Virus record (IMG/VR): IMGVR_UViG_2778261420_000023
Length of the DNA stretch: 14,121 bases
Reading direction: 5' to 3' (one strand)
DNA from: a virus
Taxonomy: Duplodnaviria; Heunggongvirae; Uroviricota; Caudoviricetes
Shown here: positions 6,642 to 14,121 of the stretch, piece after piece
Position numbering within the stretch: the first letter of the stretch is position 1
Layout: the number at the start of each line of letters is the position of its first letter
Position numbers and translations under genes: made by a program
Notes under the pieces: generated by a model
Databases searched by the model: none
What the model saw: the letters and a program-made list of their open reading frames with translations, nothing else
What the model was told of the DNA's origin: nothing

Positions 6642-6890
6642 TTATTGTTTCACTGGCTCCCGCATTCTGCGTCTTATTTTCCACAAATATTCGATCATCG
6701 CTTCCACCTGCTCACGGTTGGTTGCGAAAATTTCCCCGGTCAGTGAGCTACGCAGAAAATCATGATGATCCACAAAAAATAACGCATCGGAAGAAAGCAA
6801 CCGACGATATTTTTTTGCTGTCGTGGTTTCCAGATCATCAAAACCATGAAGCTTTTTATGTTGCTGAACTTCTTCAAATGTCACTGGCAT
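6642..6890 (-). CDS. Hypothetical protein
   Basis: 82-aa ORF; ATG at 6890 preceded by AAGGGGGA SD; overlaps the 3' end of the ProQ/FinO-like gene by 10 nt. Confidence 0.5.
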   Translation of the reverse strand: MPVTFEEVQQHKKLHGFDDLETTTAKKYRRLLSSDALFFVDHHDFLRSSLTGEIFATNREQVEAMIEYLWKIRRRMREPVKQ

Positions 6891-7423
6891 GTATCCCCCT
6901 TTGCTGCCCGGCGCTGGCGCTTGTGCTTCTCATTCAGCACCATCAGCCGTGTTTCTGCCTCCTGCTGTTCCTGTGGTGTCACTTCCCCACATGGCTGGCC
7001 TTTCAGGTCGTAACGTGCGCCACCAGCTATCAGGGCGCGGTAATAGCGCGGAGACTGCGCATAGGATGCCAGCGTCGCACGTAATACCCCCGACCCGAAT
7101 GCCAGCCCCCTGACGGCGATATCCTGCATCAGGTCGTCGAATATCCCCACCTTAAGCGGCTTCGGTGCTTTATGGCTGAATAAGTCAGGCCACATCTCAG
7201 TGAGGCGGTTAACGCGTCGGCGGTTTTTGCGCTGCCTTTTGGTCATATGCTGCCACGGTGTCGCCCCTGCGGTCTTCTGTTTGCGGCTCTGCTGTGCGTT
7301 CTGATTATCGGGTATCACTTTATGCGCCGATGTGGTTTTATCCTGCTCTTGCGCCGCCTGCGTCGTTTTCTGCGGCGTGCCGTAAATGCCTTTCGGCTTC
7401 CGGTTAATGGTCAGCGTTGTCAT
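6881..7423 (-). CDS. ProQ/FinO-domain RNA-binding protein (RNA chaperone-like)
   Basis: PKPLKVGIFDDLMQDIA...LRATLASYAQSPRYYRALIAGGARYDLKGQPCGEV aligns by eye with the E. coli ProQ N-terminal FinO domain (PLKIGIFQDL...LRSALRLYTSSWRYL...RVDLDGNPCGEL). Basic N- and C-terminal extensions. ATG at 7423 with GGGGGAAGG SD. Confidence 0.75.
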   Translation of the reverse strand: MTTLTINRKPKGIYGTPQKTTQAAQEQDKTTSAHKVIPDNQNAQQSRKQKTAGATPWQHMTKRQRKNRRRVNRLTEMWPDLFSHKAPKPLKVGIFDDLMQDIAVRGLAFGSGVLRATLASYAQSPRYYRALIAGGARYDLKGQPCGEVTPQEQQEAETRLMVLNEKHKRQRRAAKGDTCQ

Positions 7424-8095: not shown

Positions 8096-10219
8096 TTAAT
8101 CTTCTGCCTCAGGCTGGAACATCAGCACGTAAAAAACATGCTGCTTCCCCCCAATTTTGCTGAGCGCCTTTTTCTTGTAACGGCGGTCGTTCCCCTTTTC
8201 CAGCATCCCCGCCGCATCAAGCGCTCTTGCAAAATGCGACGGGTTAAATCCCTGTGCGATCTCACCTTCAAACACATGCGGGAACGTGTAAAAACGGAAC
8301 TCGTCATCTTCGTTTCTGATACTCCCCTTTCTGTATCCGGCAAGTTCTTTAATCGGTAAATCACGCTCGTCGGTGTTGGGCCACGGAAGGTATCTGCTGA
8401 ATCCGAACGACGCTAAAAAAGCCTCTGCCTGTTCAACCATCTGTTTAAATTCCCTGTTACCCGTGCCGAACTCCTTCACCCAGGCATTAAAATTATGCTG
8501 TATGGCATCGCGGCACGCCTGAACATCCCAGCCAGTAATATGACCGGACAACACTAACGCCGCCTCAAGCATGGCAAATCGCTCCCCCACACGGTGAACC
8601 TGTTCGCCGTAGCTCTCCGGTATCAGGTTGCGCCACCGTTCACGGCATGCCCTTACCGTGTCCTTTGCTTCCTGCTGGTGGTTTGCCAGCCATTTAACCC
8701 ACTCTCGACCCGCCGCCCCGTGATTTTCTGTCCAGGCATCCTTTAACGCGTCTGCGTGCGCCTTTCCGGTGCTGTATTCGTGAAACTGCGTGGCTTTTTC
8801 CATCGGCACGTTAAGCAGGCGGACAAGCTGCCCCGCCTTGACTTTTATCCCCTCCGTTTTGAGGAATGTTTCAACGTCCATTTCTCCGGTGCTGATTGCC
8901 ACCGTGCGCCAGTGTTTGATCTCCCTGTTGCCGCCGTCCTTCGCCCCCTGTAATTTCCCCGAACCGTTAAACAGCGTATAGGCTGACGTGGACACCTCCC
9001 GCGCGTTTCCGGCCTGACCTATTTCATCCAGGGGTAACAGCCCGTCATTATGCGCTTCGGCCTCGTTGGCGATACCTAACGCCGTGCCGTACCAGGTCAG
9101 CCGTTGTGCGTCCGGCTCTCCCCATAAACTGGATGCGATGTTCTGTGTGGTGGTTTTCCCTGCCGATGACTGTTCGAAAAGATGTACCCCGAAGCCGTCA
9201 GCCCCCACCAGCCCGATTAATGGTGCGGATAACGATACCGCCACACCCAGCATCATGGACGGATTACCACCAGCCAGCCGCGCCACGGTATCGCGCCAAC
9301 CCTCCGCCGTTCCTGCCACGGAATAGCCATTAACAGCAGCCGTTTTTCCGGTAAACAGGGCTGGCTTTTCGCAATCACCAATGACCGAACCGTCCGGCAT
9401 GATGTACGCGCCAAAATGCCAGCCCGTTGTTGTGCTTAACTGCCATTCCTCATGGCTTCCGCTTAACTGCATCCAGTCAGCCAGGATAGCCCTGTATTTG
9501 CCGTTAGTTGTTACGTTCAGTCCGTGGTCTTTCAGCAGCCGCCAGCCGTCACGGTCGCCAATGCCACCGCACGGAACCGCCATTGTGATGACTTCATGGT
9601 TTGCTAATTTTTTCCAGCGCATCACGCGGTAATGCTCTTTACCGATTGTTCCCGTTCCCAGTAGTTCAAGCGGGGAACATAACCACGTCTCAGGCCGGAT
9701 AATTTCGCCTGACTGCTTATCCACTTTTGGCGTTACCCAGAAAACACCATCGGCGCGACTTTCAACGCGGGGCTTTAATTCATCATCGCCCTGGCTTTCT
9801 GTAATTTTTTTCTTTAAAGGCAACACCAGACTTTCCCCGCGCTCGTATTCGTCTTTGAGGCGAGGCAACTGGTCGGATAAATCCGCCGGGCTGGTGTCAG
9901 TTATCCCCGCGTATTCGTATACGGTCTTCACGCCAGCCACAGCCAGCAACGTGACGATCTGTGTAAGGCTACGTTCAGTGATGTGCCCTGCGCGGTAAAT
10001 ACGCACACACTGACGGCTATCATCAATAATTTGATAACCGGTAATATCTTTCAGGTGTTCATCTGACAGAACGACAGGTGGCACATTGTCGGCGGCAATA
10101 TGCTTACCTGCCCATTCCTGCCACTCTTTCGCATGGCTCCACGCATCACTACCTGCAAAGATGATTACCTCCGTCATTTTGTCGGCTGGCTGGTGCTTTA
10201 AGTTTGGTGCGCGCTTCAT
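8096..10219 (-). CDS. Primase/helicase-like replication initiator with P-loop NTPase domain
   Basis: 707 aa; Walker A (EQSSAGKTTTQ) and Walker B-like (GLLPLDEIGQ) motifs; N-terminal region may be a toprim/primase-type domain (EVIIFAGSDAW, unverified). ATG at 10219 overlaps the upstream stop (ATGA). Confidence 0.75.
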   Translation of the reverse strand: MKRAPNLKHQPADKMTEVIIFAGSDAWSHAKEWQEWAGKHIAADNVPPVVLSDEHLKDITGYQIIDDSRQCVRIYRAGHITERSLTQIVTLLAVAGVKTVYEYAGITDTSPADLSDQLPRLKDEYERGESLVLPLKKKITESQGDDELKPRVESRADGVFWVTPKVDKQSGEIIRPETWLCSPLELLGTGTIGKEHYRVMRWKKLANHEVITMAVPCGGIGDRDGWRLLKDHGLNVTTNGKYRAILADWMQLSGSHEEWQLSTTTGWHFGAYIMPDGSVIGDCEKPALFTGKTAAVNGYSVAGTAEGWRDTVARLAGGNPSMMLGVAVSLSAPLIGLVGADGFGVHLFEQSSAGKTTTQNIASSLWGEPDAQRLTWYGTALGIANEAEAHNDGLLPLDEIGQAGNAREVSTSAYTLFNGSGKLQGAKDGGNREIKHWRTVAISTGEMDVETFLKTEGIKVKAGQLVRLLNVPMEKATQFHEYSTGKAHADALKDAWTENHGAAGREWVKWLANHQQEAKDTVRACRERWRNLIPESYGEQVHRVGERFAMLEAALVLSGHITGWDVQACRDAIQHNFNAWVKEFGTGNREFKQMVEQAEAFLASFGFSRYLPWPNTDERDLPIKELAGYRKGSIRNEDDEFRFYTFPHVFEGEIAQGFNPSHFARALDAAGMLEKGNDRRYKKKALSKIGGKQHVFYVLMFQPEAED

Positions 10220-10755: not shown

Positions 10756-10990
10756 AATCGCCCCCGCCATTTTCACAATCAGCAATCAGGATGGCTTTAG
10801 CCTCATTCAGCGCCATATCAGCGGTAAGCTGTGCGTAAGCCAGCGAATGCGGGATTATCGCCCCTGTATATTCCGGCTCTCTGGTAATGTGTTTTTCTGC
10901 GATTGCTACCGTGCATGAAATATCAATCAGCGCGTGCATCAGCGTTTTGATGGCTTCGGCGGCTGCGTCCGGACGGGTGTTATTGCACAT
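10745..10990 (-). CDS. Hypothetical small protein
   Basis: 81-aa ORF; ATG at 10990 preceded by AGGGGGTGA SD; 11-nt overlap with the upstream gene. Confidence 0.45.
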   Translation of the reverse strand: MCNNTRPDAAAEAIKTLMHALIDISCTVAIAEKHITREPEYTGAIIPHSLAYAQLTADMALNEAKAILIADCENGGGDYAK

Positions 10991-11192
10991 GTCTCACCCC
11001 CTGAATATTCGCGTTAATCATTCCGGCACGTTCTGCGAGTTCCTGTAATGATTCCCTTGTTGCGACAATGGCTTCATCTGGCAGGTGGTAATTACACACC
11101 ACGCGACCTTTATCCACATTGACCAGTAGCTGCCCGGTAAATTTCTCACGAAACTGAACGCGGTTAAGGTCGGTAAGTGACAGGTTAATCAT
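10980..11192 (-). CDS. Hypothetical small protein
   Basis: Start placed at ATG 11192 (MINLSLTDLN...), preceded by GGGGGAAG SD; 8-nt overlap (ATGATTAA) with the upstream ORF stop. Confidence 0.45.
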   Translation of the reverse strand: MINLSLTDLNRVQFREKFTGQLLVNVDKGRVVCNYHLPDEAIVATRESLQELAERAGMINANIQGVRHVQ

Positions 11193-11388
11193 GGTCTTCC
11201 CCCTGGCGAATACGGGCAGCAAATACCATCACGCAGCCATCAGGAGATTGCTGACGCGCTTCCTGTTCGCTGGTGGCCTCAATGGTAATCACGCGCGGTT
11301 GTGCCGTGCTCAGGGCGATAAAACGCCAGATGTATTTATTCAGGTTGTACGAGTCCCGCCCTTGCGGGTGTCTGGTATAATTTCTCAT
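11185..11388 (-). CDS. Hypothetical small protein, first gene of the leftward operon
   Basis: 67-aa C-terminal segment of the long track ORF, starting at ATG 11388 with GAGG SD 6-7 nt upstream; the rest of the 370-aa ORF is judged spurious. Confidence 0.35.
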   Translation of the reverse strand: MRNYTRHPQGRDSYNLNKYIWRFIALSTAQPRVITIEATSEQEARQQSPDGCVMVFAARIRQGEDHD

Positions 11389-11464
11389 AGCTGCCTCGAT
11401 ACGCTTTCTATCGTTGGTGGTTAGACGCCCTGCATGTGTGCCACCACTGCGGGGCGTTGTTGTT

Positions 11465-11514
11465 TGGTGCATTGCACCATTCGGTTTTAACCTATCAATA
11501 AGTGAATCGCACTT
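11465..11514. promoter_or_regulatory. Palindromic operator-like sites in the divergent control region
   Basis: TGGTGCA-T-TGCACCA (11465-11479) and AAGTG-AATCG-CACTT (11500-11514); the core TGAATCGCAC recurs at 11548-11557 overlapping a TATACT -10-like hexamer (11543-11548) upstream of the plus-strand RHH gene. Confidence 0.5.
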
Positions 11515-11578
11515 CAAGCCTTTCTCTGAAATTTTTTTTGTGTATACTGAATCGCACCAACTTAGAGAGGATTCAGTA

Positions 11579-11758
11579 ATGGCAACAGGTTCAACAAATA
11601 ATAAGTCGCAACAGTTAAATGCCAGATTCCCGCATGATGTTGTTGCAGACTTAGAAAAAAATTTAGATGAAGGTGAAAGCAAGGCGCAATTTATAGTTAC
11701 TGCCGTTAAAGGTGAGATCAAACGCCGCCAGCGCCGCAAGGCCAAAGAGCAGGAGTAA
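11579..11758 (+). CDS. Small ribbon-helix-helix-like DNA-binding protein (candidate repressor/switch protein)
   Basis: 59 aa (MATGSTNNKSQQLNARFPHDVVADLEKNLDEGESKAQFIVTAVKGEIKRRQRRKAKEQE): beta-strand-then-helices pattern typical of Arc/MetJ/CopG proteins, basic tail. ATG at 11579 with GAGAGG SD 8 nt upstream. One of only two plus-strand genes called. Confidence 0.5.
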   Translation: MATGSTNNKSQQLNARFPHDVVADLEKNLDEGESKAQFIVTAVKGEIKRRQRRKAKEQE

Positions 11759-11815
11759 CCATCACCAGCGCCGTGGTGTAAGGTATTACGGCGCATTGCT
11801 ATGCAGGACAACACA

Positions 11816-11989
11816 ATGACCGATAAAGAATTGACCAAAACATTATCACCGACACGGAAAAGACGGCGCAGAAAGATAGAGCATGAATCAGAAAGATTCG
11901 CGCCATGTGCTTTTGCCCTTGAGCAATTCCTTAAAGAGTACAGGGAAAAGCGCTCATTGCAGGTATGGCAACGAACTGAACCAGACTGA
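11816..11989 (+). CDS. Hypothetical small basic protein
   Basis: 57 aa from ATG 11816 (AGGA 8 nt upstream), downstream of the RHH gene and upstream of a plus-strand terminator; no motif recognised. Confidence 0.3.
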   Translation: MTDKELTKTLSPTRKRRRRKIEHESERFAPCAFALEQFLKEYREKRSLQVWQRTEPD

Positions 11990-12055
11990 TTGCATTGCCC
12001 ACCAGCCGCAAATGTGGCATTGTTGGTGATGCTTTTGTTTTCCCTTGTTCCCACT

Positions 12056-12085
12056 GGCGACCCTTTTGCGGTCGCCTTTGTTTTG
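12056..12085 (+). terminator. Rho-independent terminator of the short plus-strand unit
   Basis: GGCGACC-cttttgc-GGTCGCC stem-loop (12056-12076) followed by TTTGTTTTG. Confidence 0.55.
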
Positions 12086-12122
12086 CCTGTTATCCGGCAA
12101 TAGTGGCGCTTCACCACACGGT

Positions 12123-12208
12123 TGATATAATTCCCCTGCACTGATCCATTTTTTTCGCAGCAGGTTAATTGTTCAGAAAGGCGGTTCCTTATCGGGGCCG
12201 CTTTTTTT
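12123..12208 (+). ncRNA. Candidate small RNA unit: extended -10 promoter plus intrinsic terminator with no ORF between
   Basis: TGATATAAT at 12123-12131 matches extended -10 consensus TGnTATAAT; an 8-bp-stem hairpin (12181-12201, two G.U pairs) is followed by seven T (12202-12208). Predicted transcript about 70 nt, antisense to read-through from alpA. Confidence 0.3.
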
Positions 12209-12349
12209 ATGCCTGAAAATACCCGATAACATGGCTTTTTAGTTTCACCAGGACGAACGAAGCCCCGCCCCTGTTCGGGCGTATATCCAGTATTCATGGT
12301 TAGATCTCTGTGTTAGTGGATGGGTGGCGGCGGTGCGCCGCCAGCCTGA

Positions 12350-12553
12350 TTAGTGAACTGCCTCGCGGCTGTCCTTCCATGCCAGAACTTCGGATAAAGA
12401 CCAGCCAACGGAACGACCGCCGAGTTTACGCCGTGATGGGAATTGTCCAGTCTTCTCCAGGCGATACCGACATGAGCGGCTCAGGCCTGTAAGTTGCTGA
12501 CATTCTTTTTCACGTATAAAGCGATCAGCGCTTAACACTATTGCCTCCGTCAT
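12350..12553 (-). CDS. alpA: AlpA-family transcriptional regulator / excisionase-like protein
   Basis: 67 aa; LTGLSRSCRYRLEKTGQFPSRRKLGGRSVGWSLSEVLAWK matches the AlpA helix-turn-helix signature (TGLSRSTIYRL..G.FP....LG.R.VGW...E...W). Confidence 0.85.
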   Translation of the reverse strand: MTEAIVLSADRFIREKECQQLTGLSRSCRYRLEKTGQFPSRRKLGGRSVGWSLSEVLAWKDSREAVH

Positions 12554-12570
12554 TTCTCAAAGAGTCATTT

Positions 12571-12600
12571 GGTGTCTTATTGTGTCGTATTGTTCCCGCT
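12571..12600. promoter_or_regulatory. Three 10-bp-phased TGTSTC/TTGTTCC repeats 18-47 bp upstream of the alpA start codon
   Basis: ggtgtcttat / tgtgtcgtat / tgttcccgct; same motif family as the arrays at 12811-12870 and 6563-6589. Confidence 0.45.
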
Positions 12601-12810
12601 AGAGTGATGAATGGCAAATATTGGTGACGGTCGTTTTACAGATATGGGGTAATTAGAATAAAAATACTTTTAATTCATTGTGATGTAGTAGCGTAAAATT
12701 TTGCTTTTACGCCTTTTTTACATATTTTTAAGAGTGATTCGCCAGTGTATAAAAAAACAGTATACATATAAAAATCAAATGGTTATGAATGAGTTTGATT
12801 TTTAATCCGC

Positions 12811-12870
12811 TTGTCCCATTTTGTTCCTTGTTGTTCGTCGTTGTGTCTCGTTGTTCCACGTTGTGTCCGT
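12811..12870. repeat. Six tandem degenerate 10-bp units (TTGTYCNNNN) just 3' of the integrase stop
   Basis: ttgtcccatt / ttgttccttg / ttgttcgtcg / ttgtgtctcg / ttgttccacg / ttgtgtccgt, exact 10-bp register. Confidence 0.6.
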
Positions 12871-12891
12871 TCTGAAAAATCACGAAAAAAA

Positions 12892-14121
12892 TTATATTTC
12901 TCTGGCTATTGGCAGTGTGGTTACGTTTTCGTGAGTACCTGCCAGTATCTCTAACCGCTCTGTCCACATGTCCAGCGCATTACGTTTCGCATCGAGATAA
13001 CGGGAGTGGTTATAGACTCGCTGCATCCCTGGCATCTGGTGAGCGGTGAGTTGTTCGACAATATGCGGATCCACGCCTAAATCATTCAGCATCGTGGTAA
13101 ACGTGCGCCGTATATCGTGTAGTGACCAGTGCGGATGGTTTAATTTTTTGTGCGTGAATCTGCCGTATTGCGACACGCTGGCTTCCTGTTTCAGTTCCCC
13201 GAGTAATAGCCCTGTGTGTCGGTTCTGCTCCACCAGCCGTGTGACGAACGGTAAAATGCTTTCCGGTATTGGCCTGAATATGGCTACCTTCGTTTTGCTG
13301 TGCTCCTTCGGTACTGTCCAGAGCATTTCCTTAAAATCCCACTCCCTGATCTCCGACAGCCTCAGTTCTCCGGTTCGGCAACCAAACACAATCAGGAGGC
13401 GGATTAGTGCGCTGTAGTAGGGCGGGAATATTTTTTTATCCAGCGCCTGTAATAATTCGCCCAGTTCTTTGTTACTAAGCACGCGTTCGCTTATGCCTGG
13501 TTTTTTACCAACGTCCACCACGTTGAGATCATCCAGAGCGTTACTGACGGCATAGCGGCGTTTACGACAGAATTTAAGCGCCTGTTTGCACGCCTGCATC
13601 ATGTGACCAGACGTTACGGGGGATTTTTTGCGTATCCGGTCAAAACAGGCCAGCCAGTGACGTAATTCGCATTTATCCAGTGGCATGTTACCGATGTGCT
13701 GTATGACGTGATTATTCAGGCGACTTTTCAGGCATACATAATCGACACGGTTTTCCTTTACGTGCGTTTCCAGCCAGTAACTGATCGCATCGCCAACCGT
13801 TACGGGTTTTAACGCTTCCTGCACAGTGTAGTTCAGTTCATGACGTGGGTTTTTCCCTTCTGCCAGCCATGCACGACACTTTGCGGCTTTTTCCCTGGCT
13901 GCTTTAAGGCTCAGATCGGGATAGTTTCCCAGCTTCAGACGTTCCGGTGTGGTATCCCTTCCCGTTCCAGCCCTGTAGGTGAAGTACCAGGTCAATTTAC
14001 CTGATGTTAAATATTTCACGCTCAGATTACCGCCATCGCTATAGAACGTATTTTTCTCCGCTGGCTTACCATAAAGTTTTCTTAACAATGTATCGTTCAG
14101 TTTGTTAAGCGCTCTGCTCAC
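12892..14121 (-). CDS. int: Tyrosine site-specific integrase, P4-type with N-terminal arm-binding domain
   Basis: 409 aa; N-terminus resembles the DUF4102 arm-binding region of CP4-57 IntA; catalytic signature present (GCRTGELR, HDIRRT, LTAHQ, RVYNHSRYL). The start is GTG at 14121..14119 on the window edge, so the true start may lie beyond the window. Confidence 0.88.
   Translation of the reverse strand: MSRALNKLNDTLLRKLYGKPAEKNTFYSDGGNLSVKYLTSGKLTWYFTYRAGTGRDTTPERLKLGNYPDLSLKAAREKAAKCRAWLAEGKNPRHELNYTVQEALKPVTVGDAISYWLETHVKENRVDYVCLKSRLNNHVIQHIGNMPLDKCELRHWLACFDRIRKKSPVTSGHMMQACKQALKFCRKRRYAVSNALDDLNVVDVGKKPGISERVLSNKELGELLQALDKKIFPPYYSALIRLLIVFGCRTGELRLSEIREWDFKEMLWTVPKEHSKTKVAIFRPIPESILPFVTRLVEQNRHTGLLLGELKQEASVSQYGRFTHKKLNHPHWSLHDIRRTFTTMLNDLGVDPHIVEQLTAHQMPGMQRVYNHSRYLDAKRNALDMWTERLEILAGTHENVTTLPIAREI

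Follow-up and report, generated by a model that had tools for sequence, protein, structure and literature searches.

What keeps a phage satellite silent until its helper arrives? Gram-negative phage-inducible chromosomal islands (PICIs) have been reported without a known repressor (PMC6092414), and the question is raised anew by the IMG/VR record IMGVR_UViG_2778261420_000023, a stretch of 14,121 nucleotides (hereafter the window, meaning this whole stretch) that is a capsid-forming PICI (cf-PICI) of the EcCIEDL933/EcCICFT073 type. An initial annotation had proposed that a small plus-strand ribbon-helix-helix (RHH) regulator, together with palindromes in the 190 bp separating it from a long leftward operon, forms a repressor-operator switch. 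The present analysis suggests that the 59-aa product of this gene is likely to be an Arc/Mnt-like RHH immunity repressor, specific to its own element, that controls the operon encoding the Icd-like protein, replication and packaging and also represses its own gene. The genes on which the argument turns are the following, the leftward operon beginning at 11388, one base from the 11389 first given.

11579-11758, plus strand: gene for the 59-aa RHH protein of the YlcI/YnfO family, the candidate immunity repressor (ATG at 11579, TAA at 11756-11758)
11185-11388, minus strand: Icd-like gene (67 aa), first gene of the replication and packaging operon (NF033153, E = 1e-19; phrog_1743, E = 1.6e-22)
11185-12297, minus strand: long open reading frame (ORF) of 370 aa that shares the frame and stop codon of the Icd-like gene and starts 52 nt past the alpA stop
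12350-12553, minus strand: alpA, the known PICI activator (PF05930, E = 3.4e-18; role from PMC6092414), convergent with the RHH gene

The plus-strand ORF does diverge from the leftward operon, and it is a real gene under purifying selection, with a ratio of nonsynonymous to synonymous substitution (dN/dS) of 0.03-0.14 against homologues with saturated synonymous sites, and with a Shine-Dalgarno sequence (GAGAGGA, 11565-11571) seven bases before the ATG. Its product scores 63.3 bits against the NCBIfam model NF041551 (YlcI_YnfO_N; cut-off 30, E = 1.5e-17), and the NCBI annotation pipeline (PGAP) also gives close copies the YlcI/YnfO family name. Homologues occur throughout the Enterobacterales, while the family is small, with no more than 99 representative clusters from an exhaustive profile search, and a tblastn search of the phage collection with the RHH protein gave no match. 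The RHH fold claimed for the product appears with confidence in an AlphaFold monomer built from a more diverse alignment (pLDDT, the predicted local distance difference test, of 88.2), in which an extended segment (residues 11-18) precedes two helices (19-27 and 35-58), giving the N-terminal beta-strand, two helices and intervening G-x-S/T/N turn of the superfamily; a first monomer from a shallow alignment had reached a pLDDT of 69, and Foldseek against the PDB returned no match. Aligned with Arc, residues K9, Q12, N14, R16, P18, G32 and S34 pair with Arc K6, Q9, N11, R13, P15, G30 and S32, placing Q12, N14 and R16 on the base-contacting Q9, N11 and R13. A profile search of PDB sequences found no known relative of the 59-aa protein, and Pfam scans of distant family members gave a single weak RHH_1 match (E = 0.029). 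Some family members (P0079, P0124, P0128, P0131, P0139, P0145, P0152, P0155 and P0163) carry a helical C-terminal extension of 40-70 residues past the RHH domain, which may be an oligomerisation module.

If the protein is a repressor, its sites should lie between the divergent genes, where three candidate operators were identified relative to the predicted promoters of the leftward operon (PL) and of the RHH gene (PR).

11465-11479, no strand assigned: operator O1, core GTGCATTGCAC at 11467-11477, at about +5 to +15 of the predicted PL; a site is present here in nearly all loci
11500-11514, no strand assigned: operator O2, core GTGAATCGCAC at 11502-11512, filling the PL spacer between -35 and -10; at -77 from the start codon in relatives
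11545-11559, no strand assigned: operator O3, core CTGAATCGCAC at 11547-11557, over the end of the PR -10 and the start site; at -32 in relatives

The 7-1-7 palindrome described at 11465-11479 is perfect (TGGTGCAtTGCACCA), the 5-5-5 palindrome at 11500-11514 is present (AAGTGaatcgCACTT) and a second copy of its core does overlap the -10-like hexamer, as TGAATCGCAC is found both at 11503-11512 and at 11548-11557, the latter copy sharing one base with TATACT (11543-11548); the full 11-bp O3 (11547-11557) shares two. These elements are not two different palindromes, however, but an asymmetric 11-bp site present three times. By itself, the 5-5-5 palindrome is unremarkable. When the 190 bp were shuffled 2000 times (dinucleotide-type shuffles), a palindrome arm of at least 7 arose in 4.4%, a direct repeat of at least 10 in 1.45% and both together in none, and the motif STGMATYGCAC, a pattern taken from these same sites, occurs in 14 kb at the three sites only, against 0.12 expected. 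The motif TTGTGGTTAGA showed no enrichment in the window. Taken from the window alone, chance is only moderately excluded, and the decisive evidence is comparative.

Seventy-one loci were taken from species-representative genomes encoding a relative of the 59-aa protein, and the 72 sequences analysed comprise the window, a near-identical E. coli copy and 70 other Enterobacterales loci. Gene order is conserved: primase and the Icd-like gene run leftward, then come about 200 bp and the rightward RHH gene, and beyond a variable 0.25-1.9 kb lie alpA and int, again leftward. Of the 72, 64 have 11-bp sites of the form (G/C)TG-N5-CA(C/G), placed at -32 (O3), -77 (O2) and -99 to -112 (O1) relative to the start codon. 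The flanks of the site are conserved, while the N5 core is hypervariable between elements and the same in all three copies of one element. In a comparison of 25 beta-strand classes, O2 and O3 cores of the same element differ at 1.28 positions and those of different classes at 3.35, a separation reached in none of 100000 permutations. O1 is the reverse complement of O2 in several classes (for example TATTT / AAATA), as expected of an asymmetric, protein-bound site. A search near alpA and elsewhere in every locus found no consistent fourth operator. The core varies together with the N-terminal beta-strand of the RHH protein, for example in these pairings, and pairings of this kind are kept across different genera.

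Beta-strand KSQQLNARFP: core AATCG
Beta-strand KSQMTTVRIP: core AAATA
Beta-strand KSKKLEARVP: core TCAGC
Beta-strand KSQKMSARVP: core GCACC
Beta-strand KSLQVSVRLP: core AACAC

Within any one operator class residues 12 and 14 do not vary at all, and R16 is invariant throughout. On this sequence comparison, it is the RHH protein that the operators follow, not the neighbouring Icd-like or AlpA proteins, and the concerted change of the three sites, the covariation of core and beta-strand and the overlap with promoters together support the proposal that the palindromes are operators of the RHH protein. It is very improbable that the repeats are instead bound by AlpA, by the long Eta/Icd-like protein or by a host factor, with the RHH association reflecting linkage only. 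PHROG does label Icd-like families 'transcriptional repressor', and the CFT073 long ORF weakly resembles the anti-repressor Ant, but that label is probably a historical artefact of the obsolete 'cI gene product' annotation of P4, whose record (L076, 8168-8584) still names an ORF 'cI gene product, transcriptional repressor' that has PHROG families in common with Icd-like proteins. Binding by the Icd-like protein is argued against by two loci (L004 and L063) with identical Icd-like tails and different operators and beta-strands, and by the window and a further locus (L020), whose tails are nearly identical and whose cores are AATCG and AAATA. Nor is operator class tracked by AlpA similarity, since the closest AlpA relatives have other operators, while Pectobacterium elements share the operator of the window, yet have Icd-like and AlpA proteins only 42-54% identical. 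A host factor would leave unexplained the element-specific cores that change in concert.

The placement of the sites indicates which promoters an RHH repressor would control.

11512-11517, minus strand: PL -35, TTGAAG, a TTGA[ACG]G-type hexamer abutting O2; TTG start in 62 of 64 loci
11489-11494, minus strand: PL -10, TAGGTT, 17 bp from the -35; TAnnnT here in most loci
11543-11548, plus strand: PR -10, TATACT (RHH promoter), with (G)TATAC(T) in 52 of 64 loci and a T-tract upstream

Across the loci the PL spacer is 17 bp with O2 inside it, and O1 lies right after the PL -10 or about 10 bp further. These positions are classical for repression of PL and autorepression of PR, and the conserved site layout, the protein covariation and the promoter positions support the repressor-operator switch reading, from which we infer repression itself. 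An unlikely alternative is that the RHH protein does bind these sites, but only as a local autoregulator or in some other role, such as control of its own rightward unit or cargo or as an antitoxin-like partner of the toxic Icd-like protein, and is no master switch. Local autoregulation does not account for two of the three sites lying on PL elements and not on PR. The ORF downstream of the RHH gene, listed here, is not conserved.

11801-11989, plus strand: 62-aa ORF 3' of the RHH gene (phrog_21027, E = 1.5e-15)

This ORF is variable cargo, found in only the closest relatives and missing from most related loci, and compact loci exist with nothing between the RHH gene and alpA. An antitoxin role fits poorly with an RHH gene that is divergent from the Icd-like gene and not co-transcribed with it, as the members of toxin-antitoxin pairs are; a type II toxin-antitoxin system was rejected on gene arrangement, with the Icd-like gene divergent, a downstream ORF in the closest relatives only and compact loci having no downstream gene.

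Several observations weigh against the immunity-repressor reading. Ties to characterised RHH families at the sequence level are weak, as the window protein has no Pfam match and falls outside PF03869 (Arc/Mnt), and hhalign against Arc gives P of about 1e-3 and a weak probability of 21-27%. PR has no recognisable -35 element, and a simple consensus promoter scan of the window left both PL and PR under threshold, so that both assignments rest on conservation. RHH dimers usually cooperate on adjacent sites, and the spacings of 35 and 45 bp seen here are wider than that. The covariation of protein and operator is confounded by linkage and shared ancestry, because both lie within 120 bp. Immunity-like behaviour is seen in eleven genomes with two to four modules each, where none of the 21 co-resident pairs share a class (about 4 expected under random assortment within genus, P ~0.006), but this test uses draft assemblies, in which near-identical copies could collapse. 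Finally, overexpression of AlpA alone induces EcCICFT073 (PMC6092414), and any repression must therefore be bypassable.

A possible route for such a bypass is suggested by the long minus-strand ORF. The 190-bp region between the genes is present as described; it is not purely intergenic, as the long leftward ORF runs through it. The Icd-like frame is open for 308 codons further upstream of its own ATG, and the resulting ORF spans the leader, PL, PR and O1-O3 and is antisense to the whole RHH gene and the 62-aa ORF. The corresponding frame is open for 367 codons in CFT073 and 130-350 in most loci, compared with 0-40 in the other two frames. Many long ORFs have a strong Shine-Dalgarno sequence and start no more than about 10 nt from the alpA stop or overlap it, and several have a common N-terminus, M..KTK. 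Over the RHH gene the sense and antisense frames share wobble positions, and 67 of 70 distinct RHH genes have no stop codon in the antisense frame, against a mean of 28.7 and a maximum of 41 in 2000 trials of synonymous-codon resampling; this frame is therefore under selection to stay open. Database entries for the long form, 300-444 aa in length, often go by the names "Icd-like" or "ash family", some with a Bro-N domain, and PGAP annotates the short or the long form depending on the genome.

The shared third positions raise the opposite possibility, namely that the plus-strand ORF is unexpressed and a by-product of the long minus-strand gene, as conservation of one frame implies conservation of the other and many NCBI records annotate the long ORF only. 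We regard this as the least credible of the alternatives, as the plus-strand ORF has a conserved start, stop, GGAG Shine-Dalgarno sequence and -10 element, its product is modelled with a confident RHH fold and has a beta-strand that covaries with the operators, and the antisense translation over the RHH gene is Cys-rich and unlike a protein. As a separate observation, eight loci from Pectobacterium and Dickeya (L005-L012) have the operator class of the window and a long ORF shortened to about 100-115 codons, except L011 (244); in L005 and L008, int and alpA of another island lie just past the Icd-like gene. These loci look like orphan or tandem modules.

The transcript leaving PL would also carry a structured leader.

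11425-11457, minus strand: 13-bp leader hairpin of the leftward transcript, located between O1 and the start of the Icd-like gene
11397-11424, minus strand: conserved single-stranded motif UCUAACCAC (alignment A2), followed in the transcript by a small hairpin (11397-11413), just upstream of the Icd-like ribosome-binding site

The 13-bp hairpin has 90.7% of cells paired, with 14 of 17 pairs compensatory, a result reached in none of 500 shuffles and compared with 32-44% in slid controls. It matched no Rfam family and has no U-run, and it may affect termination, stability or translation. On the plus strand the single-stranded motif reads GTGGTTAGA (11417-11425). A related observation is the motif UCUAACCA (minus-strand sense), which stands at 12294-12304, directly 5' of the long-ORF ATG, and again at 11415-11425, in the leader before the Icd-like start; its copy before the long-ORF start also occurs in CFT073 and was not seen in most other loci. 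The window further encodes a ProQ/FinO-family protein (6881-7423, from the annotation of the near-identical copy), a possible partner of the structured leader RNA.

These features raise the possibility that the main immunity factor is an RNA, as in P4, with the hairpin and UCUAACCAC controlling termination or translation and the RHH protein accessory. The strong covariation of the hairpin, its placement as in the P4 CI region, with the internal promoter on one side and a kil-like start on the other, and the presence of a ProQ/FinO-family protein on the island all speak for it. We nevertheless judge it improbable, as the hairpin has no U-run and an RNA factor leaves the covariation of operators with the protein unexplained. 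In addition, the Rfam families C4, isrK and c4-a1b1 have no match in the window (10800-12900) at E <=10, and none reaches the gathering score in the window or in 16 other RHH-bearing loci; the positive control, P4, scored 74.9 (C4), 60.8 and 44.1 bits. A C4/CI-type RNA was thus rejected for this lineage, and the layout is therefore P4-like with a candidate protein repressor in the place of the RNA factor.

Under the immunity-repressor reading, a dimer would insert its N-terminal beta-ribbon into each of the three 11-bp sites, where residues 12 and 14 would read the N5 core, and contacts to the conserved outer bases would come from the invariant R16. Judged from position, occupancy of O1 and O2 would silence PL, switching off the operon for the Icd-like protein, primase, capsid and terminase and keeping the island quiet, and occupancy of O3 on the PR -10 and start site would give negative autoregulation. 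The helper signal acts at alpA transcription, which a helper phage switches on in EcCICFT073 (PMC6092414), and induction would thus start upstream of the switch, with alpA turned on by the helper phage. By analogy with P4 (PLL/PLE, kil/eta), translation of the alpA transcript would then follow the long ORF over both the repressor gene and the switch and end as the Icd-like protein, and since the transcript would read through the long ORF, the operon would be expressed from upstream of the operators. Convergent transcription would at the same time interfere with repressor synthesis. An island newly transferred into a naive cell would have both PL and PR active until repressor has built up. It is probably alpA, rather than an anti-repressor, that connects the switch with the helper phage. 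The initial annotation had found a repressor unexpected beside an AlpA-type regulator; the two are not in contradiction, as the arrangement parallels the P4 late promoter, from which transcription reads through an immunity-controlled internal promoter.

Set beside the immunity modules already known from P22 (Mnt/Arc), P4 and P1 (immI), the module is a new variant, and a widespread one. In immI of P22, the small RHH repressors Mnt and Arc act at divergent promoters, Pant and Pmnt, with operators over these back-to-back promoters. The window resembles it in having a small candidate RHH repressor diverging from the operon that it would control, operators on back-to-back promoters, a Q-x-N-x-R strand corresponding to Arc Q9, N11 and R13, and a controlled operon within the Ant/Bro/Icd world. 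It differs in having three separate 11-bp sites where P22 has one 21-bp, tetramer-bound operator, in belonging to a satellite and not a phage, in the antisense position of the repressor gene inside the controlled gene and in having no significant Pfam Arc match. In immI of P1 and P7, the order is c4 RNA, icd and ant, and the Icd-type first gene is coupled by translation to what follows. Here too an Icd-type first gene (named through NF033153) would be under an immunity factor encoded just upstream; in P1 and P7, by contrast, that factor is an antisense RNA, and no divergent protein repressor is known there. The Stl proteins of Gram-positive islands are larger and of the helix-turn-helix type. 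The functional role would be the same, a divergent repressor silencing the replication and packaging operon of a satellite, and in the pathogenicity islands of Staphylococcus aureus (SaPIs) and other Gram-positive PICIs the repressor Stl (Rpr), from the divergent stl-str region, silences the satellite operon (PMC6092414). Stl is, however, inactivated by direct binding of a helper-phage protein, and no such interaction is known or implied here.

The closest parallel in layout is with P4. The P4 left operon begins with the AlpA-like orf88, followed by eta, a Bro-network gene that holds a constitutive promoter and the CI immunity RNA with its targets, and Kil is a truncated in-frame product of eta, whose translation from the upstream late promoter prevents termination (PMC10111431). 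In both systems an AlpA-like gene leads into a long ORF with an internal promoter, a short toxic in-frame C-terminal product and a primase operon, and in the window the short gene is likewise nested in frame at the end of the long ORF that follows alpA, with the internal promoter inside. The Icd-like protein is a profile-level relative of the P4 Kil region, and both are matched by phrog_1743 (7.5e-21 for the P4 'cI/eta' ORF). Read-through from the upstream promoter would explain insensitivity to immunity. The immunity factor of P4, in contrast, is the C4-family CI RNA, in whose place the window has a protein and DNA operators, and P4 has no YlcI-like gene (tblastn of the phage collection). The founders of the family, YlcI (prophage DLP12) and YnfO (Qin) of E. 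coli K-12, match the same NCBIfam model and have an RHH-like sequence pattern. Of the two, the YlcI/DLP12 locus alone was examined, and there ylcI differs in diverging from nohD across a lambda-type cos region (L075, 6252-6835), with no three-operator layout evident. A literature search found no published function for these founders or the YlcI/YnfO family, no publication on an RHH protein in PICIs and none describing the proposed switch.

A broader proposal can be advanced only tentatively. The cassette of an RHH gene and three operators would be the long-sought master repressor of Gram-negative PICIs, exchanged as a unit in at least 15 non-cross-reacting classes and replacing the antisense RNA of P4 and P1, with the repressor gene lying antisense inside a translated eta-like gene; AlpA-driven read-through would both bypass the operators and shut off the repressor, making a convergent bistable switch. 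If the 59-aa protein is the repressor, the silence of these islands would be explained, islands could be typed for immunity by their operator and beta-strand classes, engineering would gain a compact collection of repressor-operator pairs that are orthogonal, and there would be a clear example from nature of two functional genes that overlap in antisense and share wobble positions.

The module is found by DNA similarity in 1515 of 5426 complete E. coli genomes. The prototype EcCICFT073 has the same module, with the operator GTGTGGCCCAC (core TGGCC) and the beta-strand KSQALKARVP, and locus tags were added late for its small module genes. The element in the window carries int, alpA and primase together with its own capsid, portal, protease, connector, HNH and both terminase genes, a set that matches the cf-PICI family definition (10.1101/2022.09.08.507074). 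A 99% identical copy is integrated in yifB, next to the ilv operon, in an E. coli chromosome. On one strand of this copy PGAP annotates integrase, an AlpA-type regulator, the Icd-like protein, small ORFs, DUF4222, primase, SSB and ProQ/FinO, followed by major capsid, protease, portal, connector, HNH and the small and large terminase; on the other strand, in the interval from alpA to the Icd-like gene, it places a "YlcI/YnfO family protein" and a hypothetical protein. One further feature bounds the rightward transcript.

12056-12084, plus strand: intrinsic terminator of the rightward (RHH) transcript; the other strand of the hairpin has no T-run

Between int and alpA, four 10-bp units of the TTGTTCC type stand head-to-tail at 12811-12860, and single copies occur at 12590-12600, near an alpA -10-like hexamer, and at 12045-12055, 3' of the 62-aa ORF; these repeats may be bound by AlpA or integrase. 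The Rfam int-alpA RNA motif (RF02996) lies between int and alpA in eight loci (L003, L018, L020, L022, L029, L040, L052 and L054) and not in the window. A promoter-like 17-mer 5' of alpA, resembling the RHH promoter, was treated as chance, because it is not conserved in 44 other loci. Finally, the record 'Escherichia phage vB_KppS-Ant' (L074, LR881103.1) is a 16.5-kb cf-PICI deposited as a phage, in which an annotated 324-aa ORF (8578-9552) ends in an Icd-like domain and the opposite strand hides a diverged, unannotated YlcI-like RHH gene (8982-9185).

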